Assembly (NCBI GenBank): GCA_963827235.1 | Contig: CAWHAE010000018.1 | Span: 224,001 to 288,000, forward strand | DNA from: an uncultured bacterium | GTDB lineage: Bacteria; Chloroflexota; UBA5177; JANWHV01 | Length of the DNA: 64,000 bases | Direction of reading: 5' to 3' | Shown here: positions 34,928-50,334 of the stretch, piece by piece | Numbering within the stretch: the stretch's first letter is position 1 | Layout of the letters: each line of letters begins with the position of its first letter | Notes under the pieces: model-generated | What the model was told of the DNA's origin: nothing | The model's input: only the letters and a program-made list of their open reading frames with translations | Databases searched by the model: none | Made by a program: the position numbers and the translations under genes

Positions 34928-35638
34928 TCACGGTTCAATTACCAGGCGCAAGCGCTTGTTGACGCGCCCCTTGCTCTCATGCCCGACCACGCGGATATGC
35001 CCCACTTCACCCGTCCACGCCACGTGGGTGCCGCCATCTGCCTGCAGGTCGAGACCGGCTATCTCCACCACGCGTATCTCCGCGATCCCTTCCGGCAGCA
35101 AGTTCACCTTCGTGCGGATCAAGTCTGGAATGGCGAACGCCTCGGCGCGCGGGAGGACGCGCACGCGAATCTCGCGATCGGCGGCGATCTCGGCGTTGGC
35201 CCGTGCCTCTATCTCCTCCGCGAAGTCGGCGCTCATGCGCTCGAGCTCGAAGTCCATCCGTGCCTTGCCCGGTTCCATGGAGCCGCCGGTCACCGGAGCC
35301 TGGTAGTCGCGCCAGATCACGCCGCACAGTATGTGCAGCGCGGTATGCGCGCGCATCAGAGAGTGGCGCCTCTCCCAGTCCACCACGCCCTCCACGGTCG
35401 CGCCCTGTTCCGGCACCCGGCCGTCGAGGTGGTGCCAGACGGTCGCTCCCTCCCGGCGCACGTCGACCACGCGCGCCTCGCCGCCCAGCCAGGAGATCGT
35501 GCCTTGGTCCGCCGGCTGGCCGCCGCTCTGAGCGTAGAACACCGTTTGATCGAGCTCGACACGCGAGTCCAGGACCTGAGTGACCGTCGCCTGCATCTGC
35601 TTCAAGTAACTGTCGGCGTGGTACAGCAGGATCGTCAT
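34928..35638 (-). CDS. alaX: Alanyl-tRNA editing protein (AlaX-M type)
   Basis: TVFYAQSGGQPADQG, MRAHTALHIL, DLQADGGTHV, SKGRVNKRLR. Confidence 0.93.
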   Translation of the reverse strand: MTILLYHADSYLKQMQATVTQVLDSRVELDQTVFYAQSGGQPADQGTISWLGGEARVVDVRREGATVWHHLDGRVPEQGATVEGVVDWERRHSLMRAHTALHILCGVIWRDYQAPVTGGSMEPGKARMDFELERMSADFAEEIEARANAEIAADREIRVRVLPRAEAFAIPDLIRTKVNLLPEGIAEIRVVEIAGLDLQADGGTHVAWTGEVGHIRVVGHESKGRVNKRLRLVIEP

Positions 35639-35850
35639 GATGGCATGCTCCATTCAGATGGGCGCCGTTGAATATCGGTCCGGCCTGCCAGCTCCAGCAG
35701 CTTGCCTGCTATGCGCGCGCGCAGCGGCGCGTCCGCGTGCACGGTTGTGATGCCCTCCATGAGTAATTCAGGCGACGCAGCGGCGAGGGCGATCGCCAGC
35801 GCATCGTCCACGTCGGTGCCTACGTCGGTGTCGAGGATGATTCGCTTCAT
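35635..35850 (-). pseudogene. N-terminal fragment of a nucleoside hydrolase
   Basis: MKRIILDTDVGTDVDDALA..GITTV..AGRTDI, then homology stops after ~60 aa. Strong AGGAGGAG RBS. Confidence 0.8.
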
Positions 35851-35889: not shown

Positions 35890-36810
35890 TCACGATCCGG
35901 TGGCGCCCAGCTTCGCGAACATATCGGCAAAGATCGGGTCCCGATCGACAGAGCCGACTTCACGAATCAGGTGCCGGCGGGCGTCGTGACTCCAGGTGCG
36001 CTCGCTGGAAAGGACCGGACTGTGGACCAGCATGCTCTCCGCCCAGGCGGGATTCACCAGCCAGGCTACCGGCCCGACGTCCCAGATCGCCTTGGATCGC
36101 GCGAAATGATCGTCGTAGTAGGCCGAGTACTCTTCGGCCAGAAAATCGCCCAGCCTGCTTTTGCCGCGGACAAAGCGGTCGATCTCCGCCTCCGAAGTGC
36201 TCAGACGGTCGGTGACGGGCAGGCAGGGCACGTGAACCAGCGGCACGCCCGAATCAAACAGGATGCGCGACGCGTGCATGTCCTGCTTCAGGTTGAACTC
36301 CGACGCCGTGTGCCAGTAGCCGGCGTTGCCGCCCAGCCACACAACCACGATGCGCGACCGGATCTCCGGGGCCAGCACCAGCGCCGAGGCCACGTTGGTC
36401 GGTGCCGCGATCGCCACCACGTACAGCGGTTCGGCGCGATCCGCTGAAGCACGCGCGATCAGGTCGTCCACGGCCGGGCTGCGCACCGGCTGATCCGGCC
36501 CGGCCATCCACGACCGCGCCCCGCGAAACACGAACCCCTCGTGTGAGCGGCCGAGCAGATCCAGTAGCCGAAGGATCTCCTCGTAGCTCTTCTCCATACC
36601 GTCCGCGGGGCCGGAGGAGCGGTCGTTGTGGAAGGGAGCGGCATAGACCGCTTCCAGCTCGATACGCTCCGGCGACAGCATGGCGTATGCCAGCGCGAAC
36701 TGGTCGTCGATCTCGTTGTACGTGTCCGTGTCCATCACCATGGCGACCTTGCCGGCCGGCGGATCGAGCAGCGCCAGCCGCTCGCCCGCCCGCAACGCGA
36801 ATTCCGTCAT
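35890..36810 (-). CDS. Inosine/uridine-preferring-type nucleoside hydrolase
   Basis: MDTDTYNEIDDQFA, TNVASAL, WLGGN, EFNLKQD, KAIWDV. Confidence 0.92.
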   Translation of the reverse strand: MTEFALRAGERLALLDPPAGKVAMVMDTDTYNEIDDQFALAYAMLSPERIELEAVYAAPFHNDRSSGPADGMEKSYEEILRLLDLLGRSHEGFVFRGARSWMAGPDQPVRSPAVDDLIARASADRAEPLYVVAIAAPTNVASALVLAPEIRSRIVVVWLGGNAGYWHTASEFNLKQDMHASRILFDSGVPLVHVPCLPVTDRLSTSEAEIDRFVRGKSRLGDFLAEEYSAYYDDHFARSKAIWDVGPVAWLVNPAWAESMLVHSPVLSSERTWSHDARRHLIREVGSVDRDPIFADMFAKLGATGS

Positions 36811-38771: not shown

Positions 38772-39865
38772 GCATCGCCTCCTCGCCGTAGCGGTTTGTA
38801 CTCCATGTCGTAGCCAAAGGCGCGCGGTCCAATGACCGCCAGCGCCTTCGGCGTGGCCATCAACGGGTGGCAGGGCAGTCCCAGCACCGCCACGCGCAGG
38901 CCATAGCGCAGCACTTCCGTCGTGATCGGCTGTCCCGACTCCAGATCCACCATGCAAATGAGGTCGGGTACGGTCGCCACCGGGCTGCCGTCGCGCCGGG
39001 CGACCAGATTCTCGTTTTGCAGGTCGATTTCCAGCATGGATCCGTTGTCAGCACCCAGCCCATGCAGCGTGGCGCGTCCCACGGCGAACCCGCGCGAGAG
39101 CCGCCGGTTGACGTCCACGACCTTGCCCTCGAACAGCAGCACGCCGTCGCAGGCGGCCAGGACCGCTTCCACCGGGTTGCTCTTCGCCCGGCGGGCGCGC
39201 TGCACAGCGTAGCCCAGATCTATCGCCTTGGTCACCGCGTTGGGCACGCTGTACTGCCGGATGAAGCTCCCGCGCATGGGAGGGAAGGCGTAGCCGGCGG
39301 CGGCACCCATGTCCACCGCCGTGGCACGCGAAAGCCGCTCCAGCCAGAACATGTCCTGCGTGCCCGTGAATACCACGTGGTTGCCCTTATCGTCCGCGAT
39401 AGCAGCCGGGGCAGGGGCATGGCCGTAGATGAAGAACGTGCACATCTGCAGCTCGGGAAACGCGCGGCCCATGCCGTCCCCGTCCACGACCGGGAGTCCG
39501 GCTTGGATGGCCGTGATCATCGGCTCCATGGAGTTTGCGCCGCCGATCTCGCCCGAGATGAGCGCGGTCACCCGCTCACCGGACGCGCGTTGCACGGCCC
39601 GCAAGGCCTGAAGGCATTCGTCGCCGCGCTCGATCTTCTCGATGCCTACGACCGGCGCGCCGATCCCGCCTACGCTGACCACTCGATCCTCGTCGCTCAG
39701 CTCCTCAAGCGGCAAGAGGGTCAGCTCGCCGCCGGTCGCCAGCAATTGTTGCGTGCGGAGCCGCCCGATATGCGGATTGCCGCCGCCCCCAGTACCGAGG
39801 ATGGCGGCGCCGATCTCGAGGGCCTTGACGTCGTCAAGCGTAAGAGTACGACCCTGCCTAGCCAA
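38768..39865 (-). CDS. DUF917 family protein (copy 1)
   Basis: GAAILGTGGGGNP, EIGGANS, DGDGMGRAFPELQM, QNENL, VPDLIC. TTG start overlaps the hydantoinase stop. Confidence 0.93.
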   Translation of the reverse strand: MARQGRTLTLDDVKALEIGAAILGTGGGGNPHIGRLRTQQLLATGGELTLLPLEELSDEDRVVSVGGIGAPVVGIEKIERGDECLQALRAVQRASGERVTALISGEIGGANSMEPMITAIQAGLPVVDGDGMGRAFPELQMCTFFIYGHAPAPAAIADDKGNHVVFTGTQDMFWLERLSRATAVDMGAAAGYAFPPMRGSFIRQYSVPNAVTKAIDLGYAVQRARRAKSNPVEAVLAACDGVLLFEGKVVDVNRRLSRGFAVGRATLHGLGADNGSMLEIDLQNENLVARRDGSPVATVPDLICMVDLESGQPITTEVLRYGLRVAVLGLPCHPLMATPKALAVIGPRAFGYDMEYKPLRRGGDA

Positions 39866-41402
39866 CGGCCAGATCCCCGACCGCCTTGACGTGGATGCGC
39901 GTGGCATTGCTCGGCAGGTAGGCAAGCGGCACTTCCTCTACCTCCACGATCTGCACGCCGCCGGCCGCCGCGCCCGCTTCGATCGCCCGCTCTGTCGCCT
40001 GGCGCTTGGCATCTTCCAGCGCCTGCTCGCGCGGTACGTCGGAGAGCGCATAGACCCTGTCGATCTCACCGCTGACCTGGGCGATCGCCGCCCCGACGGC
40101 ATTTGCCACCTGGAAGTACGGCGGCCTGGTCGCCGTCAGCACGCCGATCTGCTCGCCCACCAGGATGCTGCCGCCGCCCACGACCAGCACAGGCACCGGC
40201 TCCGGTGTCAGCAGCATGCGGTCGCATGCCTCCGCGGCCATGCTCTCGATCGTGTCGACCGCTCGCCGCACCATCTTCTTCTCCAGGCCGCTCACGCGCC
40301 CGACTTCGCCGATCTCGGCCATTCCGGCCGCCACGGCCACGTCGGTAGCCGTGAGCGTGGCGCCGCCGAATACGAGGCCCTCCTCGACCAGCTTGTAGCC
40401 CACGCTCTGCGGCCCAACCGTGAGGCCCCCATTCTCAATCACCAGCGAGCCGCCGCCTAGGCCTATGCTCAGCACGTCGGGCATGCGGAAGTTGGTGCGC
40501 ACGCCGCCCACTTCGATCGCCACGCCCGCCTCGCGTGGGAATCCGCGGTGCAAAGCTCCAACGTCGGTGGTGGTACCGCCGATGTCGACTACCAGTGCCT
40601 CCTGCAGGCCGGAGAGGAAGGCAGCACCGCGCATGGAGTTGGTCGGGCCGGACGCGAAGGTCAGCACGGGGAAGCGCTTGGCGTACTCCGCGGTCATCAG
40701 CGTGCCGTCGTTCTGCGTGAGGTAAAGCGGCGCCGTGATGCCCGCATCGGCGAGCGCCTTGGCAAACGCCCCGAGCACACGTTCGCCCAGGGGCTGCAGA
40801 CAGGCGTTCAGAATCGCCGCGTTCTCGCGCTCGAGCAGACCGATCCGCCCGATCTCCTCCGAGATCGTGATGCGCGCGTCGGGCAGCTCCTCGGCGAGTA
40901 TCGCCGCCGCGCGCTTCTCCATCTCGGGGTTGATGGGCGAGAAGACGGCCGACACGGCGATGGCCTTGATACCGCGCTCCCGGATCTGCCCGGCGATACC
41001 GCGCAGCTCTGCCTCATCCAGAGCGGAAATCTCGCGCCCGTCGAACTCGTAGCCGCCGTGTGCGAGGAACCAGCAGTTGCCCACGGCGTCGCGCAGATCC
41101 TCCGGCCAGTCGACCATGGGGGGCAGAGACTGCGCGGCCGGCAGGCACAGCCTGACCGCCGCCACGCGGGCCAGATCGCGACGCTGTACCACGGCATTGG
41201 TGAACTGCGTGGTACCGATCATCAGGGCGCCTATTTGCCCAGGGCCGACCTTCGCCTGAGTGAGCAACACGTTCAGCGCGGCCGTGATGCCGGCTGTGAT
41301 GTCAGCTGAGTTATTCATCTTGACCCAATCGACAACCCGCGTGCCGTCCATGGCCACGGCGTCTGTATTGGTGCCGCCGACATCGATCCCTATTCTGAGC
41401 AC
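39858..41402 (-). CDS. Hydantoinase/oxoprolinase A-type (actin-like ATPase) protein
   Basis: IGIDVGGTNTDAV, GLLERENAAILNA, SGPTNSMRGA, DIGGTTTDVG, RTNFRMPDV.SIGLGGGS, ANAVGAA. Confidence 0.94.
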   Translation of the reverse strand: MLRIGIDVGGTNTDAVAMDGTRVVDWVKMNNSADITAGITAALNVLLTQAKVGPGQIGALMIGTTQFTNAVVQRRDLARVAAVRLCLPAAQSLPPMVDWPEDLRDAVGNCWFLAHGGYEFDGREISALDEAELRGIAGQIRERGIKAIAVSAVFSPINPEMEKRAAAILAEELPDARITISEEIGRIGLLERENAAILNACLQPLGERVLGAFAKALADAGITAPLYLTQNDGTLMTAEYAKRFPVLTFASGPTNSMRGAAFLSGLQEALVVDIGGTTTDVGALHRGFPREAGVAIEVGGVRTNFRMPDVLSIGLGGGSLVIENGGLTVGPQSVGYKLVEEGLVFGGATLTATDVAVAAGMAEIGEVGRVSGLEKKMVRRAVDTIESMAAEACDRMLLTPEPVPVLVVGGGSILVGEQIGVLTATRPPYFQVANAVGAAIAQVSGEIDRVYALSDVPREQALEDAKRQATERAIEAGAAAGGVQIVEVEEVPLAYLPSNATRIHVKAVGDLAVG

Positions 41403-41496: not shown

Positions 41497-42516
41497 CTAG
41501 CGACGCTCGTGCAAGAAGCATCGCACCTCCGATCCCTCCACCGGATAGAGCGGCGGCGGACTGTGCCAGCAGCGCTCGCTCGCGTGGGGGCAGCGCGGAG
41601 CAAAGGCACAGTATTCCCCCGGCTTTGCCGTGGCCGCGGCGTGGTGCGTGCCCTCCTGCACGGCAGGCGGCCGGATGAGCATCGCCTCCTCGGGCGTGAT
41701 CACGGGTACGGCGGAGATCAGAAGCTGGGTGTAGGGATGCTGCGGTGCCGCGAACACGCGCGCCGTGTCCCCGCTTTCCTGAACCTTCCCTTCGTAGAGC
41801 ACCAGGACCCGGCCGGCGATGGTGCGTACCAGGCTGATGTCGTGGGTGATGAACATGTAGGATAATCCTAGCCGCCGCTGCAGCTCGAGCAGTAGGTCAA
41901 TCACCTTCGCCTGTACCGAAACGTCGAGCGCCGACGTCGGCTCGTCGAGGATCAGCATCTCGGGACCGGCTGCAAGGGCCCGCGCGATGGCAACGCGCTG
42001 GCGCTGGCCACCGCTCAGACCGCCCGGGTGACGGGCGGCGAATTCCGGCGGTAGCTCGACCAGACCAAGCAGCCGCTCGATCTCGCGTCGCGCAACAGCG
42101 CCGCGCATGCCGCGGTGGATATGCAGGGGCAGCGCTAAGGCCTGTCCGACCGTCCGCCGCGGGTTTAGAGCCGAGGCAGGGTGCTGGAAGACCATCTGCA
42201 CGCGCCGCTTTTGATCGCGCGATCGCTGCCCGGACTCAGGCGGAAGAGCCTCGCCATCCAGCAGGATGGTGCCCGTGGTCGGACGGTAGAGGCCGACGAT
42301 GCTGCGAGCGATCGTTGACTTGCCCGATCCCGACTCGCCGACCACGCCCAGGATCTCGCCGCGGCGTACCACGAGCGAGACGCCGTCCACGGCCCGCTTG
42401 AGCTCCCGGCTTCCTCTCGTCTTGAAGTGCTGGCGCAGATCCTGCACCGACAGGATTGGTCCTTCCGGATCGCCGCGGCCGTCCGCGGTCGCGCGCGTCT
42501 GTGCGTCAGCGGCCAT
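41497..42516 (-). CDS. Oligopeptide/dipeptide ABC ATP-binding protein (OppF-type)
   Basis: GESGSGKS, LSGGQRQR, LDEPTSALD, HPYT..L, C-terminal CAFAPRC..C..C. Confidence 0.95.
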   Translation of the reverse strand: MAADAQTRATADGRGDPEGPILSVQDLRQHFKTRGSRELKRAVDGVSLVVRRGEILGVVGESGSGKSTIARSIVGLYRPTTGTILLDGEALPPESGQRSRDQKRRVQMVFQHPASALNPRRTVGQALALPLHIHRGMRGAVARREIERLLGLVELPPEFAARHPGGLSGGQRQRVAIARALAAGPEMLILDEPTSALDVSVQAKVIDLLLELQRRLGLSYMFITHDISLVRTIAGRVLVLYEGKVQESGDTARVFAAPQHPYTQLLISAVPVITPEEAMLIRPPAVQEGTHHAAATAKPGEYCAFAPRCPHASERCWHSPPPLYPVEGSEVRCFLHERR

Positions 42517-43540
42517 CGTACAACCAGCAGGCTACGCGATGGTCGTCCGCCCCGGCTGCAAACGACAGCGGGCGCTGTTCGGCGCAAATGGGCATGGCAT
42601 GCGGGCAGCGCGGATGGTAGCGGCAACCGCTTGGCGCCTCCGTATAGTTCGGCAGCGTGCCGGGGATACCCTTCGCGATCATCTGTCCCGTCAGTCGCGG
42701 CACGCATTCAAGCAGGGCGATCGTGTAGGGGTGGCGCGGGTTCGCAAACAGCTCGGCAGTTGCCGCTTCCTCCACCACGATCCCGGCATACATCACCGCC
42801 ACGCGGTCGGTCACCGTGCGCACGACGCCCATGCTATGCGTGATCAGCAGGGCGGAGCGGCCCTCCTCGCGTACCAGCCGTGTGAACAGTGAGAGAATCT
42901 CGGCCTGCACGGTGACGTCCAGCGCCGTGGTCGGCTCGTCCGCCACGATCAGCCAGGGATCGGTCGAGAGGGCCAGGGCAATGGAGACGCGCTGATTCAT
43001 GCCTCCCGAAAGCTGGAAGGGATAGGCACGCAACACGCGGCCCGGATCGTCGAGCTGCACGTGGCGCAGCAGGGCCTCCGCCCGCTCGTCAAGCTGGCTG
43101 CGCGAGAGGCGCTCGCCCCGCCGGCGACCGGCCTGGCGCAGTATCTCCCGCATCTGATTGCCGATCGTGAAGACCGGGTTGAGCGATCCGACCGGGTCCT
43201 GAAAGACCATGTTGAAGTGAGCCAGGATGACCGCGCGGCGATCGCGCCGCGACATGGTCCGCAGGTCAGCGCCGTCGAACTCGACCAGTCCCTCGATCTG
43301 CGCCGGCGGGCTGGCCAACAGGTCGAGCACCGCGCGCATGAGGACGGATTTGCCGCATCCGGTCTCGCCCACCACGCCGATCAGCTCGCTGGCGGCGATC
43401 TGCAGGTTGGCACGATCGATCACGCGCGCCCGGCCCTCGAAACTGCGGAAGGTCACGGACAGATCGACCAGGCGCAGGCTATGCGGCGTGTGCTTTGGCG
43501 ACGCGAAGGCGCCGGTACCGGGCTCCACTGAGTTACGCAT
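42506..43540 (-). CDS. Oligopeptide/dipeptide ABC ATP-binding protein (OppD-type)
   Basis: GETGCGKS, LSGGMNQR, ADEPTTALDVTVQ, GCRYHPRC. Confidence 0.95.
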   Translation of the reverse strand: MRNSVEPGTGAFASPKHTPHSLRLVDLSVTFRSFEGRARVIDRANLQIAASELIGVVGETGCGKSVLMRAVLDLLASPPAQIEGLVEFDGADLRTMSRRDRRAVILAHFNMVFQDPVGSLNPVFTIGNQMREILRQAGRRRGERLSRSQLDERAEALLRHVQLDDPGRVLRAYPFQLSGGMNQRVSIALALSTDPWLIVADEPTTALDVTVQAEILSLFTRLVREEGRSALLITHSMGVVRTVTDRVAVMYAGIVVEEAATAELFANPRHPYTIALLECVPRLTGQMIAKGIPGTLPNYTEAPSGCRYHPRCPHAMPICAEQRPLSFAAGADDHRVACWLYDGR

Positions 43541-43542
43541 GC

Positions 43543-44448
43543 TCAGACATCCACATCGAACAGATCTCGCAGCCCGTCGCCCAACAGATTGAAGCCGAGC
43601 ACCGCTACCACGATCGCCAGGCCGGGGAACACAGTCTCCCACCAGCCGCTGGGAAGGTCGCCGACTCCTGCCGACACCATGGTGCCAAGGTCCGCCTGCG
43701 GCGGCTGCACGCCCAGTCCCAGGAAGCTCAGCGCGGCGCCGATCAAGATCACGAAGCCGGCATCCAGCGTGACCTTGACCAGCACCGCGGAGGCCGCGTT
43801 GGGCAGAATCTCGCGGAACATGATGTGGATCGAGCCGGCCCCCATCAGGCGCGCCGCGTCTACGTAGTCCTCCTGCTTCAGCGACACGGTGATGCCGTGC
43901 ACCAGCCGGGCATGCCAGGTCCACCAGAGGGAGGTGACGGCGATCATCGCGTTAAACAGGTTAGGAGTGAGCACCGACGTGATGGCCATGGCCATGACCA
44001 GCGGCGGCACGGAGAGAAAGACGTCGGTCAGCCGCATCAGGACAGTCTCGATCCAGCCGCCGTAATAGCCGGCTACCAGGCCGATGATCACGCCCATGGG
44101 GACGCCGATGGCAAGCACGAAGAGCACCAGCACGAGCGAGGTCTGGTAGCCGAACAGAACCCGGCTGAAGAGGTCGCGGCCCGCGTTGTCGGTGCCGAAC
44201 ACGTGCTGCCACGTGGGTGGCTGCAGCATGTGCGTAAAGTCCACGAAGCTGCCCGCGGCGCTCGGGTACGGAGCGACCAGCGGAGCGAGCAGCGCGACCA
44301 GGATGACCGCCACGGTGAGGATGAGCCCGACCACCGCGGTGGAGTTGCGCGCGAATCTGTACCAGCCCCGCCGCCAGCTTTGCCTGCGCAGAGTGCCCAG
44401 GCTGGTCTGCGGCCCGCCCTCGGAGGTTGCGGACGCCGGCACTTCCAC
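43543..44448 (-). CDS. ABC permease (OppC-type)
   Basis: HVFGTDNAGRDLFSR, YVDAARLMGA, LSFLGLGVQPP. Confidence 0.95.
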   Translation of the reverse strand: MEVPASATSEGGPQTSLGTLRRQSWRRGWYRFARNSTAVVGLILTVAVILVALLAPLVAPYPSAAGSFVDFTHMLQPPTWQHVFGTDNAGRDLFSRVLFGYQTSLVLVLFVLAIGVPMGVIIGLVAGYYGGWIETVLMRLTDVFLSVPPLVMAMAITSVLTPNLFNAMIAVTSLWWTWHARLVHGITVSLKQEDYVDAARLMGAGSIHIMFREILPNAASAVLVKVTLDAGFVILIGAALSFLGLGVQPPQADLGTMVSAGVGDLPSGWWETVFPGLAIVVAVLGFNLLGDGLRDLFDVDV

Positions 44449-44449
44449 G

Positions 44450-45472
44450 CTACACCGTCCCCTTCAGCCTGATGCGCGGGTCGAGGTAGCCACGCAGCAA
44501 GTCCATTGCCAGATTGGAGATCGAGAACATGACGCCGACGATCAGCACCACGCCCACGATCGCGTTGAGGTCCTTTTCCAGCATGGCGCGCACGCCGTAG
44601 CTGGCCATGCCCGGCCAGCCGAACACCTGCTCGATCAGGAAAGCCTCGCCGAATAGAGAGGCGAAGGTCAGACCGACCACCGTCAGGGCCGGGATCAGCG
44701 CGGGCTTGAGCGCGTACTTGAAGGCGATCCGGGCCCGCGGCACACCGCGCAATCCCATCGCCTGCACGTACTCGCGTCGCAGGATCTCCACCATGCTGGC
44801 GCGTACCAGCCGCACGACCTGCGAGAGTCCCGCTGCCGCAAGGGCAATGGAGGGCAGTATGAGATGCACGAGCGCGCTGCCGAACACCTGGAAATTGCCT
44901 ACCAGCAGCGAGTCGAGTGCCACCATGCCCGTAATCGTGTGGTGGAACTCCAGATTGGGACTGAGCTGGCCGCTCACCGGTAGCACCCCGAGCGCGTAGC
45001 CGAATACGAGCTGCAGGCAAATGCCCACCAGAAAATCCGGGGTGGCAACGCCGAACAGGGCCAGCAGGCGGGCTATCGCGTCGATCGGTCCATCGCGATT
45101 GAGGGCCGCGAGCACGCCGAGCGGAAGCCCCACCACGACCACGAGCAAAGTACTGGCCAATACCAGCTCCAGCGTGGCCGGGAACGTATCGCGAAGGTCG
45201 TCGAACACGTTGCGCCGCGTGAGAATGGCCGTGCCGAAGTCGCCGTGCACGGCGCCGCCCAAGTAACGTGCGTATTGCACCCAGACGGGCCTGTCGAGAC
45301 CGAAGTCATGATCCAGCGACTTGACCTGTGACAGCGTGGCGTTGGGACCCAGGGCGAGACGCCCTGGGTCCCCTGGCACCACACGGGCGAGGACGAACAT
45401 CAGTACCGACAGCCCCAGCAGCACGAGCACCGCCTGGGCGGTCCGGCGACCGAAAAAGGACAGCAGTTCCAC
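44450..45472 (-). CDS. ABC permease (OppB-type)
   Basis: VPGDP, FGLDRPVWVQY, FPATLEL, IEQVFGWPGM, LDPRIR. Confidence 0.95.
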   Translation of the reverse strand: MELLSFFGRRTAQAVLVLLGLSVLMFVLARVVPGDPGRLALGPNATLSQVKSLDHDFGLDRPVWVQYARYLGGAVHGDFGTAILTRRNVFDDLRDTFPATLELVLASTLLVVVVGLPLGVLAALNRDGPIDAIARLLALFGVATPDFLVGICLQLVFGYALGVLPVSGQLSPNLEFHHTITGMVALDSLLVGNFQVFGSALVHLILPSIALAAAGLSQVVRLVRASMVEILRREYVQAMGLRGVPRARIAFKYALKPALIPALTVVGLTFASLFGEAFLIEQVFGWPGMASYGVRAMLEKDLNAIVGVVLIVGVMFSISNLAMDLLRGYLDPRIRLKGTV

Positions 45473-45502: not shown

Positions 45503-47158
45503 CTACGACTTCTTCAGATCGTAGAACTGGTACTGGCCCGCCGGGATCCATTGGAAGCCGGTCACGCTTGGTCGCACCGCCTGTCTCCAGAGGTCCGCGA
45601 GCATGAACACGTCGGGCTGCAGCGCCACGATGCGCGCCTGAAGCTGCTTGTAGATCGCATTCCGCTTGGCCGTGTCCACGGTCAGGCGCGACTGGTCGAT
45701 CAGCTTGTCGACCTGGGGGTCGTTGAGCCATTCCATGGACGACCAGCTACCGGACGACTTGGAGTCGTACTGCTGGAAGAACATGCTGTCCGGCGACGGA
45801 TAGAGCACGTCGTAGAACACTTCGGTTACGTTGGGCGTGTCGCTGATCTTCGTGGCAAGCTCGGTGATCCGGTTCCAGGGCTGCGGGCTGATGCTGACCT
45901 TGAAGCCCAGCGGGCTCATGATGCTGTTGAAGAGCAGGGCAATCTGCGACTCGAAGATGGCGCCGGTGACGTAGCTCAGGGTGATCGGAATGTCGCCCTT
46001 GCCGGCATACTTGCTCTTGGCAAGCTCCGCCTTCGCCGCGGCCAGATCCTGCTTCGGCACCGGCAGACCGGCGTCATAGGCATCCTTGAACACCGGCGAG
46101 AGCGGGCCGCCGATCGCCGCGCCCGGACGCAGGTCGTTGCGCGTCGTCGTATAGTCGAAGGCCAGGGCGATCGCCTTGCGCACGTGAATGTCGTCGGTAG
46201 GGGGGATGCGCGTGTTCAGCTTGAGGTAGAACACGCTCGTGGTGGGCGACGACCAGATGTTGAAGCCCAGGCTCTTGAGTGTCGTGTAGGTGGTGTTGCT
46301 CTGGTAGTTGCTGGTCATGTCCAGCACACCGGTCTTGGCCAGAGAGATCACGGTGGGATCCGAGGCTGCCGAGAAAACCAGCACGCGCACCTCGTCGATT
46401 GCTCCGGCCTGCCAGCCGCGGAAGTAGCTGGGGAAGCGCTTCATGCGGAGCTCACTGCCCTCGACGTCGCTTTCCAGCGTGTACGGACCGGAACCGGCCT
46501 CGTTGGAACCGAGCCACGCCTGGCCATAATCACCATCGGCGCCGAACTTGCCGGACTTCTGGTGCGCCTTCAGCGTGGCCTTTTCCATGATGAACAGAAC
46601 CGCCATGGTAGACGGGAACGGCGCGAAGGGCGTGTGCAGCGAAAACTGCACCGTATAGCGATCCAACGCCTTCACCCCATCGGCGGTCAGATAGCCCAGC
46701 CAGACGAAAGAGTAGCCCTGGTTGATGGCAAGGATTCGCTGCGTCGTGTAGACGACGTCGTCGGCCGTCACCTCGTTGCCGCTGTGGAACTTGACACCCT
46801 TCTTGAGGTAGAAGGTGAAGGTCTTGGCATCCGGCGAGGCGGTCCACCGCTCTGCCAAACGGCCCGTCATCGCTCCGCTGGCGGTAGGAGTCAAGAGGGT
46901 ATCGTAAAAGTTGATAGAGGCCATGTTCTGGGTATAGTCGGTGCCGATCGCCGGATCGATGTTGCCGAACACCTGCACGGTATTCAGGGTCAGGGTATTG
47001 GAGCCGGCTTCCACGCGTTCTGCGTGGACGTCGAGTGCGGTGGACAGTTGGGCGAGCGTGGTAGCGCCGATGCCTAGGGCGGCAGCACGTGCCACGAAGT
47101 CGCGACGCGACAGATCACCGGCTACCACAGACGCGAGGAGTTGATCCAGCTTGCTCAC
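45503..47158 (-). CDS. ABC substrate-binding protein (family 5), Tat-exported
   Basis: SRRDFV Tat motif, LKKGVKFHSG..VTADDV, GSGPY. AGGAGG RBS before GTG 47158. Confidence 0.94.
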   Translation of the reverse strand: MSKLDQLLASVVAGDLSRRDFVARAAALGIGATTLAQLSTALDVHAERVEAGSNTLTLNTVQVFGNIDPAIGTDYTQNMASINFYDTLLTPTASGAMTGRLAERWTASPDAKTFTFYLKKGVKFHSGNEVTADDVVYTTQRILAINQGYSFVWLGYLTADGVKALDRYTVQFSLHTPFAPFPSTMAVLFIMEKATLKAHQKSGKFGADGDYGQAWLGSNEAGSGPYTLESDVEGSELRMKRFPSYFRGWQAGAIDEVRVLVFSAASDPTVISLAKTGVLDMTSNYQSNTTYTTLKSLGFNIWSSPTTSVFYLKLNTRIPPTDDIHVRKAIALAFDYTTTRNDLRPGAAIGGPLSPVFKDAYDAGLPVPKQDLAAAKAELAKSKYAGKGDIPITLSYVTGAIFESQIALLFNSIMSPLGFKVSISPQPWNRITELATKISDTPNVTEVFYDVLYPSPDSMFFQQYDSKSSGSWSSMEWLNDPQVDKLIDQSRLTVDTAKRNAIYKQLQARIVALQPDVFMLADLWRQAVRPSVTGFQWIPAGQYQFYDLKKS

Positions 47159-47244
47159 GATCGAAGCCCTCCTACAACTGGTAGTAGCACTACTCGACGC
47201 TGAGCAGCCGCATACACCTGCAACGCCGAACAGATACGGCGAGG

Positions 47245-47258
47245 AATCATATATGATT
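47245..47258. promoter_or_regulatory. Palindromic GntR-type operator 1
   Basis: AATCATATATGATT, perfect 14-bp palindrome just downstream of the minus-strand promoter. Confidence 0.7.
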
Positions 47259-47264
47259 GCATGT

Positions 47265-47294
47265 ACCGTAAGCGATGGCTGCAATGTCTGTCAA
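47265..47294 (-). promoter_or_regulatory. sigma70-type promoter of the ABC/hydantoinase operon
   Basis: TTGACA (47294-47289)-N18-TACGGT (47270-47265). Confidence 0.55.
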
Positions 47295-47360
47295 GCGCCG
47301 GCTCGCGGCCCCTATACGAAACCGCAACGGAACGGATGATGCCATAGCGCCATCGGTGAC

Positions 47361-47374
47361 AATCGTATATGATG
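47361..47374. promoter_or_regulatory. GntR-type operator 2
   Basis: AATCGTATATGATG, 12/14 match to operator 1, upstream of the GntR fusion gene. Confidence 0.6.
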
Positions 47375-47456
47375 TGGCGGTGAACGGCAGCATGCGACAC
47401 AAGGTATGGTCAAACGCGCCGTTGCGTTATGCGGAGCCTGCTGGATTGGGGAGTCT

Positions 47457-49244
47457 GTGATCAACGACGGTGATCACCAGAGCAAGCACGAGCGAGCCTA
47501 CCAGCTCATTCGCTCGCGCATTCTGGATGGCAGTTATGCGCCCGGCGAGCGTCTCGTCATCGACGCGCTGGCTGGCGAATTCGGTATCAGCCCGGTCCCG
47601 GTGCGCGAAGCGATTCGCCGCCTCGAAGCGGAGGGTCGGATCGTCTATAGATACAACTCCGGCGCCCGGGTCGCCCTGACCGACGCCCGCCGGCATCTGC
47701 GTATCGGCATTGACGCCGGGCGCACGAGTACGGACGCCGTGTTGATGGACGGCTCGTCCGTGCTTGCCGCGGTCAAGCACCCGACCACCACCGACGTGAG
47801 CGGCGGTATCGAGGCCGCACTCGACGCGCTTTTGAGGGAGGCGCGGGCCGCCCCGGGCAGTGTTGACGCCGTGCTGATCGGCACCACACAGTTTTCCCGC
47901 GCCTTTGAGGAGCGACGGTTCGCACCTACCGCCTGTATCCGCCTGGGACTGCCGGCGACCGAAGCTGTCCCGCCCATGATCGACTGGCCGGACGAGCTCC
48001 GCCGGGCGACGGGCTGCCACTGCTACCTTGCTCACGGAGGTCACGCCTACGATGGGCGCGTGGTGGCTGCCTTGCGCGAAGACGAGCTCCAGGCCATCGC
48101 CGTCGATCTGCGGCGCCGGGAGGTCAAGTCCGTTGCCATCTCCTCCGTGTTCTCGCCCGTGGCCTTCGGTGCCGAGCAGCAGGCGGCCACGCTGCTCCAG
48201 GCCATGCTTCCCGGCGTCGCCGTGACGATGTCGCACCAGATCGGTAGCCTCGGCTTGCTGGAGCGGGAAAATGCCGCGATCATCAATGCCTGCCTTCGCC
48301 CCCACTCTCAGCTCGTCATCGAGGCCCTTCAGCGAATGCTGCGAGCAGCCGGTTTCGCCGCCCCCCTGTATCTGACTCAGAACGACGGCACGCTCATGAC
48401 CGCGGACTACGCACAGCGGTTCCCCGTGCTGACCTTCTCCTCTGGCCAGTCCAACAGCATGCGCGGAGCCGGTTTCCTCGCCGGGCGGCGCGATGGCCTG
48501 GTGGTCGACGTCGGCGGGATGACCACGGTGATCGGTATGTTGGTCGACGGATACCCGCGCGTGGCGGCAACGCCCGGGCTCATGGAAGGCGTGCGCACCA
48601 ACTTCCGCAGGCCGGACGCGCAAACCATGGCCATGGGCGGCGGCAGCGTGATCGAAGGCAACCCGCCGGCTATCGGCCCTACCGCGCTTGGCCCGGCGCT
48701 CTTCAAGGATGCGCTGGTCTTCGGTGGCTCCACGCTCACCCTCACCGACCTGGCCGTAGCGGCCGGCCAGACCAGCCTCGGCGATCCGGCGAAGGTCTCA
48801 CACCTGCGCTCCCTGGCAGAGCCAGTGCTCGAGCGCTTCGGCGAGACGTTGCGTCGAGCAGTGCAACGCGCCGGCGCACAGGAAGGGGACGGCCCCGTGA
48901 TCCTGGTCGGCGGAAGCGCCTGGCTGGCCCAGTCCGCGCTGGCCGGCCTGGAGACCACAGTGCCGGAGTACTACGCGGTGGCCAACGCGGTGGGCGCGGC
49001 GACTGCCCCGATTTCCGGTGAGGTGGACCGCGTGGTATCCCTGGCCGGCGTCTCTCGCCAGGACGTGCTGTCGGGAGCCGTCTCCGAGGCGGTGGGCCGG
49101 GCCGTGTCCGCCGGCGCCGCGCCCGATACGGTTCGTGTCACCTGGGCGGAGGACATTCCGCTCGCCTACTTGCCCGGCAGCGTCACCCGTGTGCGGGTCA
49201 AGGCGACGGGATCTCTGGCAATTGGAGTACCTCTTGGCCGCTAG
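47457..49244 (+). CDS. GntR winged-HTH fused to hydantoinase/oxoprolinase-A domain
   Basis: SKHERAYQLIRSRILDGSYAPGERL...ISPVPVREAIRRLEAEG..SGARV is continuous in frame with LRIGIDAGRTSTDAV...GLLERENAAIINA...VRVKATG. Confidence 0.9.
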   Translation: MINDGDHQSKHERAYQLIRSRILDGSYAPGERLVIDALAGEFGISPVPVREAIRRLEAEGRIVYRYNSGARVALTDARRHLRIGIDAGRTSTDAVLMDGSSVLAAVKHPTTTDVSGGIEAALDALLREARAAPGSVDAVLIGTTQFSRAFEERRFAPTACIRLGLPATEAVPPMIDWPDELRRATGCHCYLAHGGHAYDGRVVAALREDELQAIAVDLRRREVKSVAISSVFSPVAFGAEQQAATLLQAMLPGVAVTMSHQIGSLGLLERENAAIINACLRPHSQLVIEALQRMLRAAGFAAPLYLTQNDGTLMTADYAQRFPVLTFSSGQSNSMRGAGFLAGRRDGLVVDVGGMTTVIGMLVDGYPRVAATPGLMEGVRTNFRRPDAQTMAMGGGSVIEGNPPAIGPTALGPALFKDALVFGGSTLTLTDLAVAAGQTSLGDPAKVSHLRSLAEPVLERFGETLRRAVQRAGAQEGDGPVILVGGSAWLAQSALAGLETTVPEYYAVANAVGAATAPISGEVDRVVSLAGVSRQDVLSGAVSEAVGRAVSAGAAPDTVRVTWAEDIPLAYLPGSVTRVRVKATGSLAIGVPLGR

Positions 49245-50334
49245 GCCGGCGTTGCAGGAACGCCGCCGGCTCGATGCCGAGGACGTGGAGCTGATCGCGC
49301 AAGGCGCCGGCGTGCTCGGCTCCGGCGGCGGCGGGCACCCGTATCTCGGGAAGCTTCTGGTACAGAGTGCCCTGCAGCGGGACAGGCAGATCTCGCTGAT
49401 CCCAGTCGAAGAGGCCCCGCCGGGGTTGCTGCTGTGCGTGGCACAGGTCGGGGCACCGGTCGTGCTGGCCGAACGGCTGGCACAGGGTGCCGAAGCCCTG
49501 CAAGTCTGCGCGACGCTGGAAAGCCATCTGGGCGAACCGGCGGTGGGTGTGGTCTGCAACGAAATCGGCGGCATCAACAGCCTGATCCCGCTGTTGGTGA
49601 GCGCGTATCGCAACATACCGCTGCTGGACGCCGATGCCATGGGCCGCGCCTTTCCCGGGATGCATCAGGATACGCTCAGCATCTACGGCGGCACGCCGGT
49701 ACCGATCGCGCTGTGTGACGACGAAGGGAACGTGGCGATCGTTCACGCTGCCGACATGCGGGCAACCGAGCGGATGGGGCGCGCGCTTACCACGGCCATG
49801 GGAGGCCTGGCCTACCTGGCGAGACCGGTGCCGCGGGCCCGGGGGCTGGACCAGGTGCTGATCCCGGGCAGCTATAGCAGGGCGCACGAGATCGGCCGCG
49901 CTCTCAAACAGGCGACGCGGAGCGGCGATCCTCGCGCCATCGACCTCGAGTGCGTCGGTGGTCGCCGCCTGTTTGCCGGCACGATACACGCCGTCGAGCG
50001 CCGCGCGCCGGGAGAACGGATTGGCGGCATGGTGAGCATTGCCGGGCAAGGCGACGGGTATCGGGGCATGCTGCGCATCGGCTTCCAGACCGAGTACCTC
50101 GTGGCCTGGTACGGCAAGGATCTGCGCGCCGCCACGCCCGACGTGATCAGCGTGATCGACGAGGATACCGGCGAGCCAATCAGTACCGAGGCGCTGCAGG
50201 TCGGGCTGCGCGTGATCGTGCTCCACCTGGCCGCCGACCCGCGCCTGACGACACCGCAGGGCCTTGCCTGCGTGGGCCCGGCCGCGTTCGGCTACGGCGT
50301 CACGTACGGCTCGCCTGAATGGCACACGGACTGA
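49234..50334 (+). CDS. DUF917 family protein (copy 3, divergent)
   Basis: GAGVLGSGGGGHP, EIGGINS, DADAMGRAFPG, FQTEYL, TPDVI, EPISTE. TTG start with GGAG overlaps the upstream stop. Confidence 0.9.
   Translation: MAARPALQERRRLDAEDVELIAQGAGVLGSGGGGHPYLGKLLVQSALQRDRQISLIPVEEAPPGLLLCVAQVGAPVVLAERLAQGAEALQVCATLESHLGEPAVGVVCNEIGGINSLIPLLVSAYRNIPLLDADAMGRAFPGMHQDTLSIYGGTPVPIALCDDEGNVAIVHAADMRATERMGRALTTAMGGLAYLARPVPRARGLDQVLIPGSYSRAHEIGRALKQATRSGDPRAIDLECVGGRRLFAGTIHAVERRAPGERIGGMVSIAGQGDGYRGMLRIGFQTEYLVAWYGKDLRAATPDVISVIDEDTGEPISTEALQVGLRVIVLHLAADPRLTTPQGLACVGPAAFGYGVTYGSPEWHTD

Follow-up and report, generated by a model that had tools for sequence, protein, structure and literature searches.

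Fused regulator gene and its protein family

The window analyzed here, a 64-kb stretch of DNA from an uncultured Chloroflexota bacterium with a G+C content of 66%, carries at 47457-49244 a gene that joins a GntR-type winged helix-turn-helix (wHTH) to a hydantoinase-A-like domain of the ASKHA fold. This gene is followed by a gene for a DUF917 protein (DUF917c) and stands opposite a divergent operon for an ABC transporter, an unfused hydantoinase-A-like enzyme (HydA) and two further DUF917 proteins (DUF917a and DUF917b). We consider it probable, at roughly 0.7, that the fusion gene encodes an autoregulated GntR repressor, for which a duplicated and catalytically attenuated enzyme pair serves as the sensor. 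The enzyme-like domain of this regulator is referred to as HydA*. On the regulator side, the following features were annotated, with lengths in amino acids (aa) or nucleotides (nt).

47457..49244, plus strand: fusion gene, GntR wHTH plus hydantoinase-A-like ASKHA domain, 595 aa (open reading frame, Pfam and AlphaFold2 model)
47490..47672, plus strand: GntR wHTH, aa 12-72 (PF00392; 29 invariant residues in 20 fused proteins)
47673..47699, plus strand: linker or junction of about 9 residues, aa 73-81 (gap between the Pfam domains; same junction in fused homologues)
47700..49241, plus strand: HydA*, ASKHA domain of the hydantoinase-A-like type; phosphate-1, phosphate-2 and SGPTNS motifs altered (PF05378, PF01968)
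49252..50334 (approximate), plus strand: DUF917c, S-Me-THD-like, coupled to the regulator gene (PF06032, PF20906)

On the plus strand, 47406/47457 to 49244 is one unbroken open reading frame (ORF). The regulator starts with a GTG codon at 47457, preceded by GGGGAG, and stops with TAG at 49242-49244. In the 595-aa form, the N-terminus (xxxDGDHQSKHERAY) is aligned with the starts of homologues, and the protein is identical (100%) to P0003, a database entry of 595 aa. The start codon lies inside a short repeat, GTGATCAACG / CGGTGATCAC (47457-47477), whose 10-nt inverted arms are 90% complementary and 1 nt apart; this repeat at the translation start could be a small hairpin or a chance occurrence.

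Both parts of the protein were recognized by Pfam; the Pfam and NCBIfam coordinates given here refer to a 612-aa form of the regulator, while residue numbers of the linker and the wHTH refer to the 595-aa form. The match to PF00392 (GntR) at aa 29-89 has an E-value of 1.8e-16 and, at 60 bits, exceeds the gathering score of 27; it covers profile positions 3-64 of 64, so that a GntR-family wHTH is present. It is followed by PF05378 (Hydant_A_N) at aa 99-267 (E 3.5e-28, 98.9 bits against a cut-off of 25.2) and PF01968 (Hydantoinase_A) at aa 287-455 (E 1.8e-23, 83.6 bits against a cut-off of 22.9), and with both domains above threshold the regulator also has the domain composition of the hydantoinase A/oxoprolinase family. 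No Pfam match in the regulator was obtained for FCD (PF07729, at E <= 0.01), UTRA or aminotransferase effector domains, nor for PF00480 (ROK). The NCBIfam matches to HutC, PhnR, PdhR and PdxR are restricted to the wHTH (HutC and PhnR at aa 30-97, PdxR at aa 32-96). By BLASTP, the regulator and the enzyme HydA, encoded at 39858-41402 on the minus strand, share 49% identity over 518 aa (E 3e-163), and the AlphaFold2 model of the regulator is confident in both parts (pLDDT 90.5, pTM 0.83). The original prediction, made from the sequence of this locus before any database search, had described a GntR wHTH in frame with a full-length hydantoinase-A paralogue, devoid of FCD or UTRA domains and joined near 47670-47700; the Pfam matches, the 49% identity and the linker at about 47673-47699 bear out this description.

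Altogether, 20 of the 120 best matches to the regulator listed among 5.8 billion clustered proteins combine PF00392 with both hydantoinase domains at 50-74% identity, a count that includes the window's own protein. The rest of these 120 matches are unfused enzymes of about 515 aa with 51-56% identity, except for P0020 and P0023, which are fragments of the fused clade. When residues 1-100 were used as a query, the same fused set was recovered together with one partial protein, and no other architecture was observed among proteins of 327-1042 aa. A HMMER search with residues 1-130 against 1.84 billion representatives gave only two junction-spanning proteins among its best 150 matches, P0126 (a 175-aa fragment) and P0009; the other matches within the best 150 cover the wHTH only, and any weaker fusions below rank 150 would be missed.

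The wHTH is the most conserved part of the fused proteins, with 65-80% identity among them, and its recognition-helix region is invariant in all 20 (S45, P48, R50-E59). Its nearest relatives are of the FCD type, as FCD is carried by seven of the ten nearest full-length GntR proteins that were scanned (54-68% identity to the wHTH). The search for a stand-alone GntR gene beside unfused clusters, as a source of the wHTH, produced one weak match, in locus L079 (45% over 51 aa).

In a quick IQ-TREE run on 52 rows of the enzyme-like domain, the 20 fused proteins and the N-truncated P0023 form one clade with a support of 100 in the Shimodaira-Hasegawa-like approximate likelihood ratio test (SH-aLRT). 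The window's HydA is placed among the unfused enzymes, outside this clade, which rules out that the fusion is a recent duplicate of the window's own enzyme. For the same reason, the fusion is considered old and not the outcome of a recent local duplication. This corrects the initial description of HydA* as a copy of the pathway's enzyme: the nearest relative of the regulator is not the HydA of the window, nor was HydA* copied from it.

The family is narrow. Among 401 genomes sampled evenly from the window's phylum, matches that span the junction were confined to the window's genome and to two of the four other species of its genus, and five further genomes match the wHTH only; beyond this one genus, the fused proteins come from soil, peat and sediment metagenomes. 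Two fused database members are labelled 'Chloroflexota bacterium'. None of the best 80 loci from a species-representative genome collection is fused, although this listing may omit close kin of the window. Contig pieces of 151-258 nt from three public metagenome runs are 100% identical to the window; none of them crosses 47629-47908, and they speak neither for nor against the junction. Among the runs listed, none is of RNA. Seven other fused loci were collected for comparison (L081-L085, L170 and L171), of which L081 and L082 are not independent since their regulator sequences are identical.

The enzyme-like domain and its predicted DUF917 partner

Alignment of HydA* with HydA reveals four changed motifs, all of which had been listed in the original prediction: DVGGTNTD is replaced by DAGRTSTD, SGPTNS by SGQSNS, DIGGTTTD by DVGGMTTV and MPDVLSIGLGGG by RPDAQTMAMGGG. 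The window's regulator, with DAGRTSTD and DVGGMTTV, therefore departs from the canonical DxGGTxTD / DxGGTxxD motifs. These positions were counted in the 20 fused proteins and in 100 rows treated as unfused. The second Gly of phosphate-1, the Pro of SGPTNS, the Thr of TQFTNA and the Thr and last Asp of phosphate-2 are each kept in 97-100% of the unfused rows, this Gly and this Asp in 98-99 out of 100. Only 3 of the 20 fused proteins have the second Gly of phosphate-1 (8 have R and 7 have H); the Pro of SGPTNS is kept in none (Q, H or K in 18), the Thr of TQFTNA in none (A in 19) and its Asn in one, while phosphate-2 retains its Thr in 7 and its last Asp in 6. More generally, the unfused rows conserve 199 columns at 97% or more, of which just 71 are kept in all 20 fused proteins. 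Several replacements are fixed in the fused clade, namely T to A (19/20), F to L (20/20), Q to P (17/20) and Gly to Arg or His (15/20).

The motif definitions follow PMC8453981 on CapA, in which phosphate-1 is given as DAGGTFTDF and phosphate-2 as DVGGT..., and in which the residues named include Asp11, Asp18, Thr15, Asp295 and Thr299, together with Pro272 and Asp302 as conserved near the phosphorylation site; Asp11, Asp295, Pro272 and Asp302 belong to its ATP and substrate sites, and Asp11 and Asp295 were picked there for alanine mutation. Judging from motif likeness, positions in the regulator probably correspond to these CapA residues. A profile match between the regulator and an N-methylhydantoinase (7hk5, E 3e-33) aligns the phosphate-1, SGP, phosphate-2 and GGG motifs. 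In Foldseek searches with the AlphaFold2 model, the top matches are N-methylhydantoinase (9h03, E 4e-29), the acetone carboxylase beta subunit, acetophenone carboxylase and the caprolactamase alpha subunit (6yra), followed by a group that includes ROK repressors (5f7q, 1z05) and kinases.

The ratio of nonsynonymous to synonymous substitution rates (omega, dN/dS) equals 0.12-0.14 in the wHTH and 0.25-0.31 in HydA*. For the pair L084-L085, in which dS is unsaturated (0.17), the values are 0.12 and 0.27, respectively. By these ratios, HydA* is still functional and under purifying selection. Between L083 and L084, dN amounts to 0.227 for HydA* versus 0.068 for HydA, and to 0.302 for DUF917c versus 0.086 for DUF917a; both HydA* and DUF917c are constrained, yet they change at about three times the rate of their enzyme counterparts within this pair of genomes. 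Because the replacements are fixed in the clade and omega is about 0.27, the pocket looks re-tuned, as in a functional shift, rather than decaying. Of the 'degenerate' enzyme copy originally predicted, the loss of motifs is retained, whereas simple decay does not agree with the fixed replacements and this level of constraint.

DUF917c is tightly associated with the fused regulator. We found 306 DUF917 ORFs in 162 sequences (the collected loci and the window); five are of the c-type, and all five adjoin a fused regulator and form a clade of their own with a support of 100. DUF917c is located behind the regulator gene in all six other fused loci with downstream sequence (L082, L083, L084, L085, L170 and L171), while L081 ends right after the regulator gene. 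In the window, the candidate starts of DUF917c are TTG codons at 49234, which overlaps the regulator stop, or at 49252. DUF917c keeps 37 of the 47 columns that are conserved at 90% or more in the 301 other DUF917 ORFs, acidic and basic residues included.

DUF917 proteins are described as lacking experimental characterization, with a hydantoinase-like activity suggested, in a preprint (bioRxiv 10.1101/2023.09.25.559410), and our literature search of main texts returned no functional study of DUF917 and none on thiohydantoin desulfurase. With a score of 133 against the cut-off of 450 for the NCBIfam (S-methyl) thiohydantoin desulfurase, the DUF917 proteins lie far under the equivalog cut-offs, and for this reason no function was assigned to them.

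Complex prediction with regulator residues 78-595 and DUF917c, for which custom alignments were used, yielded ipSAE values of 0.82, 0.84 and 0.81 (median 0.82), compared with 0.01 for the best control. The runs share at least 87% of their contacts, and the pLDDT of the partner is at least 86. The ipSAE mark is reached by 58 of 80 solved complexes and by 2 of 110 mismatched pairs, counts that are rough given the custom alignments. As the only DUF917 match in PDB is 2o3i, titled 'Hypothetical protein', recall of a solved complex is unlikely. HydA* and DUF917c are thus predicted to form a complex, and the predicted interface includes the most conserved blocks of the family (LPAT, VFSP, GLLE and PLAYLP). 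On the regulator, this interface involves residues 166-171, 231-232, 265-268 and 567-573. The fused proteins keep 87.5% of enzyme-conserved columns at the predicted interface (22 columns) versus 75% elsewhere (192 columns).

From the predicted interface and its conservation in the fused proteins, we infer that unfused HydA would contact DUF917a or DUF917b via the same surface, that the regulator may have kept this surface while its nucleotide pocket changed, and that the regulator-DUF917c pair may be a duplicated copy of the enzyme pair. The original prediction, which located the sensor in the enzyme-like domain, overlooked the co-transcribed DUF917c partner.

The divergent operon and candidate operators

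The remaining features of the locus are the genes of the divergent operon and two palindromes in the region between its first gene and the regulator gene.

47246..47257, no strand: candidate operator O1, ATCATATATGAT, perfect palindrome, 88 nt 5' of the binding-protein start
47362..47373, no strand: candidate operator O2, ATCGTATATGAT, ends 84 nt 5' of the regulator GTG
45503..47158, minus strand: family-5 solute-binding protein of the Opp/Dpp/Nik type (SBP5); carries a twin-arginine signal and opens the divergent operon (SBP_bac_5, E 2.6e-64)
44450-45472 and 43543-44448, minus strand: two ABC permeases (Pfam; order conserved in L081, L083, L084 and L170)
42506-43924 and 41497-42516, minus strand: two ABC ATPases with oligo_HPY (Pfam; order conserved in L081, L083, L084 and L170)
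39858..41402, minus strand: HydA, unfused hydantoinase-A-like enzyme with canonical ATP motifs (Pfam, motifs)
38768 to about 39850, minus strand: DUF917a, S-Me-THD-like (Pfam; start approximate)
37692 to about 38750, minus strand: DUF917b, S-Me-THD-like (Pfam; start approximate)

The divergent order of SBP5, two permeases, two ATPases and HydA is found in L081, L083, L084 and L170. DUF917a and DUF917b follow HydA in L083, L084 and L170, while the L081 contig stops within or just past HydA and the L171 contig ends inside SBP5. HydA is 77-80% identical between the fused loci. The solute-binding protein probably starts with the GTG codon at 47158; tblastn alignments of its ORF begin at ORF residue 43.

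The divergent intergenic region is 298 bp long. Here, the 12-bp palindrome pattern ATYNTATANRAT accounts for both of its matches in the window, against 0 expected from shuffles. The whole 7.98-Mb genome contains three such sites, compared with none for the reversed control. The numbers of palindromes in L081-L085 are 2, 1, 2, 2 and 2, respectively, all of them 5' of the fusion gene and, wherever the binding-protein gene is present, between the two genes; L082, with its single palindrome, has only about 350 nt of upstream sequence. The unfused loci contain one match in the 2.2 Mb scanned. Since the pattern was derived from these sites, the counts for the window, the genome and L081-L085 are partly circular. 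L170 and L171 were fetched once the pattern was fixed and represent an out-of-sample test: each carries two palindromes, all in the intergenic region between the regulator and binding-protein genes, with no further match in the 18.3 kb and 5.8 kb, respectively, of these loci. The intergenic regions of L081, L083 and L084 are otherwise dissimilar, and the palindrome is the only obvious element that they have in common.

Spacing to the neighbouring genes was compared between loci. The transporter-side site lies 75-88 nt 5' of the binding-protein start in four loci (the window, L081, L083 and L084), and the regulator-side site lies 59-160 nt 5' of the regulator start. We regard the conserved candidate operator and the invariant recognition-helix region of the wHTH as matching. 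GntR operators are described in PMC4494728 as typically palindromic, of the form NyGTNxACNy, with paired sites in divergent regions, one per operon. The candidate core (G/A)TATA(C/T), as in GTATAC and ATATAT, fits this form in part, with the GT/AC dinucleotides in some half-sites only. A scan of 47100-47520 for terminators found none.

The third genomic site, ATTATATACGAT, is located near the 3' end of a 914-aa ORF (G000:C9:924399-924410, or L161:6000-6011, with the ORF at L161 3432..6176 on the plus strand) and is probably a chance copy. In L081 (7480-7890), the two palindromes are 494 nt apart, and the gap is filled with one G+C-rich element of about 25-40 nt, copied several times in both orientations (CTCCCAGGAG, GAGCATCTTGCTCGC), and with short tandem GATCAGTCCGATCGGTC-like repeats. 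This extra DNA looks like an insertion into the regulatory region, similar to repetitive extragenic palindromes or miniature inverted-repeat transposable elements (REP/MITE-like).

Two further observations concern the divergent operon and its surroundings. The first ABC ATPase ORF (42506-43924) comprises 472 aa, with ABC_tran from residue 170 only; alignments start at residue 148 for its relatives in L083 and L084, and at residue 1 for those in L081 and L170, so that either an N-terminal extension or a later true start accounts for it. On the 3' side of DUF917b (minus strand), about 880 nt lack a Pfam-recognizable ORF; next come an ORF resembling inosine-uridine nucleoside hydrolases (35890-36810; PF01156, E 2e-21) and one with an AlaX-like editing domain (34928-35653).

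Proposed regulation, alternatives and known systems

In the regulation that we propose, an oligomer of the regulator, most likely acting as a repressor, would bind the two ATC(A/G)TATA(T/C)GAT palindromes of the divergent promoter region, one in front of the ABC-transporter/HydA/DUF917a/DUF917b operon and the other in front of the regulator and DUF917c operon. The effector domain would be a copy of the pathway-type HydA ASKHA domain with a re-tuned ATP-phosphate pocket, in which catalysis is probably lost. HydA* would keep its DUF917-contact surface and probably form a complex with the co-translated DUF917c. In this arrangement, the sensor would amount to a replica of the HydA-DUF917 complex, tethered to DNA and attenuated in catalysis. 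An imported substrate or a pathway intermediate bound at the replica site would rearrange the winged helices so that the operators are released. The substrate is probably hydantoin-like or another cyclic amide, presumably taken up by the Opp/Dpp-type transporter, and ATP may or may not be needed. The earlier idea of an enzyme duplicate that senses the substrate and controls the divergent operon gains comparative support, as the 20-member clade, the palindrome pairs and the motif changes all point in this direction. In a more specific form, which we offer tentatively and at slightly less than even odds, a two-subunit enzyme consisting of a HydA-like ATPase and a DUF917 protein was duplicated and made into a regulator by adding a wHTH to one subunit and coupling the gene of the other, with the heteromeric replica sensing the effector.

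Several results weigh against this interpretation. The complex score is a measure of model confidence, and a close relative of the true partner could also pass it. The operator pattern was built from its own sites, only L170 and L171 are out-of-sample, and the loci are mutually related. A consensus scan of 47100-47520 revealed no sigma-70-like promoter in the intergenic region, and the scores of the DUF917 proteins leave the substrate of HydA and DUF917 without an assignment. In HydA* of the window, the minimal ASKHA motif D-x-G-x-T persists as DAGRT, and Asp86, Asp93 and Asp351, among them the first Asp of each phosphate motif, are kept in 18-19 of the 20 fused proteins; with this motif and these aspartates in place, HydA* may still bind ATP. 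Similarly, DUF917c may still be catalytic given the family-conserved columns that it keeps, in which case the pair could be both an enzyme and a regulator.

The last point leads to an alternative that we regard as unlikely, namely a bifunctional trigger enzyme. Enzymes that double as transcription regulators are exemplified by PutA and BirA. Under this explanation, the fused protein and DUF917c would together retain ATP-dependent enzyme activity, either in the pathway or in a side reaction that produces the true inducer, and regulation would be an additional role. This would be in line with the purifying selection on HydA*, the mostly kept D-x-G-x-T motif and Mg/phosphate aspartates, the 37 retained columns of DUF917c and the retention of a predicted enzyme-like interface. 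It is at odds with the variable replacement, in the fused clade, of positions that are nearly invariant in the unfused rows (Gly kept in 3/20, Pro in 0/20, Thr in 7/20 and Asp in 6/20), with the faster evolution of HydA* and DUF917c relative to their enzyme paralogues, and with the presence in the operon of a canonical HydA and two DUF917 proteins.

A little more doubtful still is the possibility that HydA* acts as an oligomerization or docking scaffold only and that DUF917c alone senses the ligand, as a co-repressor or anti-repressor that binds or leaves the DNA-bound regulator. DUF917c has intact family-conserved positions, its gene accompanies that of the regulator without exception, and it is predicted to bind HydA*, whose best-kept enzyme-conserved positions are those at the interface, and on these data a scaffold and a composite site fit alike; however, the clade-fixed replacements in the pocket (T to A in 19/20, Gly to Arg or His in 15/20) suggest a newly selected pocket and not an unused one. 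The original prediction had named an assembly artefact, or a one-off deletion fusion lacking homologues, as what might undo it. Only the rarity of the family speaks for an artefact or for a recent fusion by deletion, without function, between a GntR gene and a hydantoinase gene, and we discard both, as the same junction occurs in 20 fused proteins (among the 120 best matches) from independent sources that form one clade down to about 50% identity, and in seven other syntenic loci, with omega well under 1 in both the wHTH and HydA*.

The repressor proposed here would follow a design principle that is already known from ROK repressors, the closest functionally, and from MocR within the GntR family, and given these precedents it is a new variant and not a new kind. 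In MocR/GabR regulators, a fold-type-I aminotransferase fold dependent on pyridoxal phosphate (PLP) is re-used as a sensor. As in the fused regulator, a GntR wHTH is placed on a whole enzyme fold, and GabR chains are weak Foldseek matches through the wHTH. In contrast, the MocR effector is an aminotransferase with PLP instead of an ASKHA domain, its linker is long compared with about 9 residues here, and MocR proteins are widespread while the fused family, in what was searched, is limited to one genus and metagenomes. The binding motifs predicted for MocR also differ, as they include direct repeats and no palindrome shared by the subfamily was found (as described in PMC4494728).

Like the fused regulator, the ROK repressors (Mlc, NagC, XylR and Lmo0178) combine an N-terminal winged helix with an ASKHA domain in which DxGxT is altered. 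Their DNA-binding domain is not of the GntR type, their ASKHA domain is of the ROK/glucokinase type (PF00480) as opposed to PF05378 and PF01968, and they sense sugars. The zinc motif CxCGxxGCxE/D is a further hallmark of ROK. The resemblance is restricted to the fold, with Foldseek TM-scores on the query of 0.23-0.26. To our knowledge, no separately encoded obligatory partner subunit exists for ROK regulators. According to PMC3553997, the ASKHA domain of these wHTH regulators is shared with active kinases; most regulator groups have an altered DxGxT, and effectors are bound at what was formerly the active site.

FadR/FCD regulators contain the nearest wHTH, and the candidate operator resembles theirs in being palindromic, with sites paired in a divergent region and a core that is in part GT..AC-like; however, their effector domain is an all-helical FCD of 150-170 aa, compared with the 515-aa enzyme-like domain of the fused regulator. 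On the enzyme side, HyuA, OplA, CapA and the acetone and acetophenone carboxylase subunits share the fold and motifs of HydA* (9h03, 5m45, 5l9w and 6yra; Foldseek E 4e-29 to 2e-20). The HyuA/OplA/CapA-type chains in PDB have about 690 aa versus 515 aa here, and while CapA pairs with CapB (PMC8453981), the HydA-like family neighbours DUF917. Unlike these enzymes, the fused copy has lost canonical ATP-motif residues and gained a DNA-binding domain.

Seven GntR subfamilies are recognized in PMC12042122, none of them with a hydantoinase or ASKHA module, which agrees with the original prediction that no such GntR type is known. Our literature search, covering main texts and few subscription journals, returned no paper on a GntR plus hydantoinase-A architecture. 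The novelty lies in three features: a GntR wHTH is combined with a hydantoinase-A ASKHA domain, the linker joining them is very short, and the regulator has a dedicated DUF917 partner. The new MocR-like GntR subfamily that had been envisaged stands as a new effector combination, with the ROK pairing of a wHTH and an ASKHA pseudo-kinase as a precedent outside GntR.

The fused regulators add a type of effector domain to GntR, which is among the largest families of bacterial regulators, and would represent a second independent conversion of an ASKHA ATPase into a transcriptional sensor after ROK, with the phosphate motif altered in both. The narrow distribution of the family limits its general reach. 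If the sensor is a heteromeric replica, the family would constitute an eighth GntR subfamily and a rare one-component regulator that depends on a dedicated enzyme-like partner for ligand sensing. For the study of enzyme-to-sensor evolution, the locus unites an active paralogue, DUF917 partners and the regulator pair, which can be compared directly. The regulator and its operator also mark the HydA/DUF917 pathway with a built-in ligand detector; the ligand that releases the operator would reveal the substrate, and the regulator could serve as a biosensor part.

The HydA/DUF917 enzyme system itself is widespread, with no assigned substrate. At least 4,034 relatives were counted at E <= 0.001 among 8,000 candidates scored. 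In loci L001-L160, unfused HydA-like genes usually occur with two or three DUF917 genes. The number of DUF917 ORFs per sequence is one in 31, two in 59, three in 37 and four to six in 10 sequences. These numbers are suggestive of a HydA-DUF917a-DUF917b enzyme with several subunits, distributed widely among Chloroflexota, Actinomycetota and Pseudomonadota.

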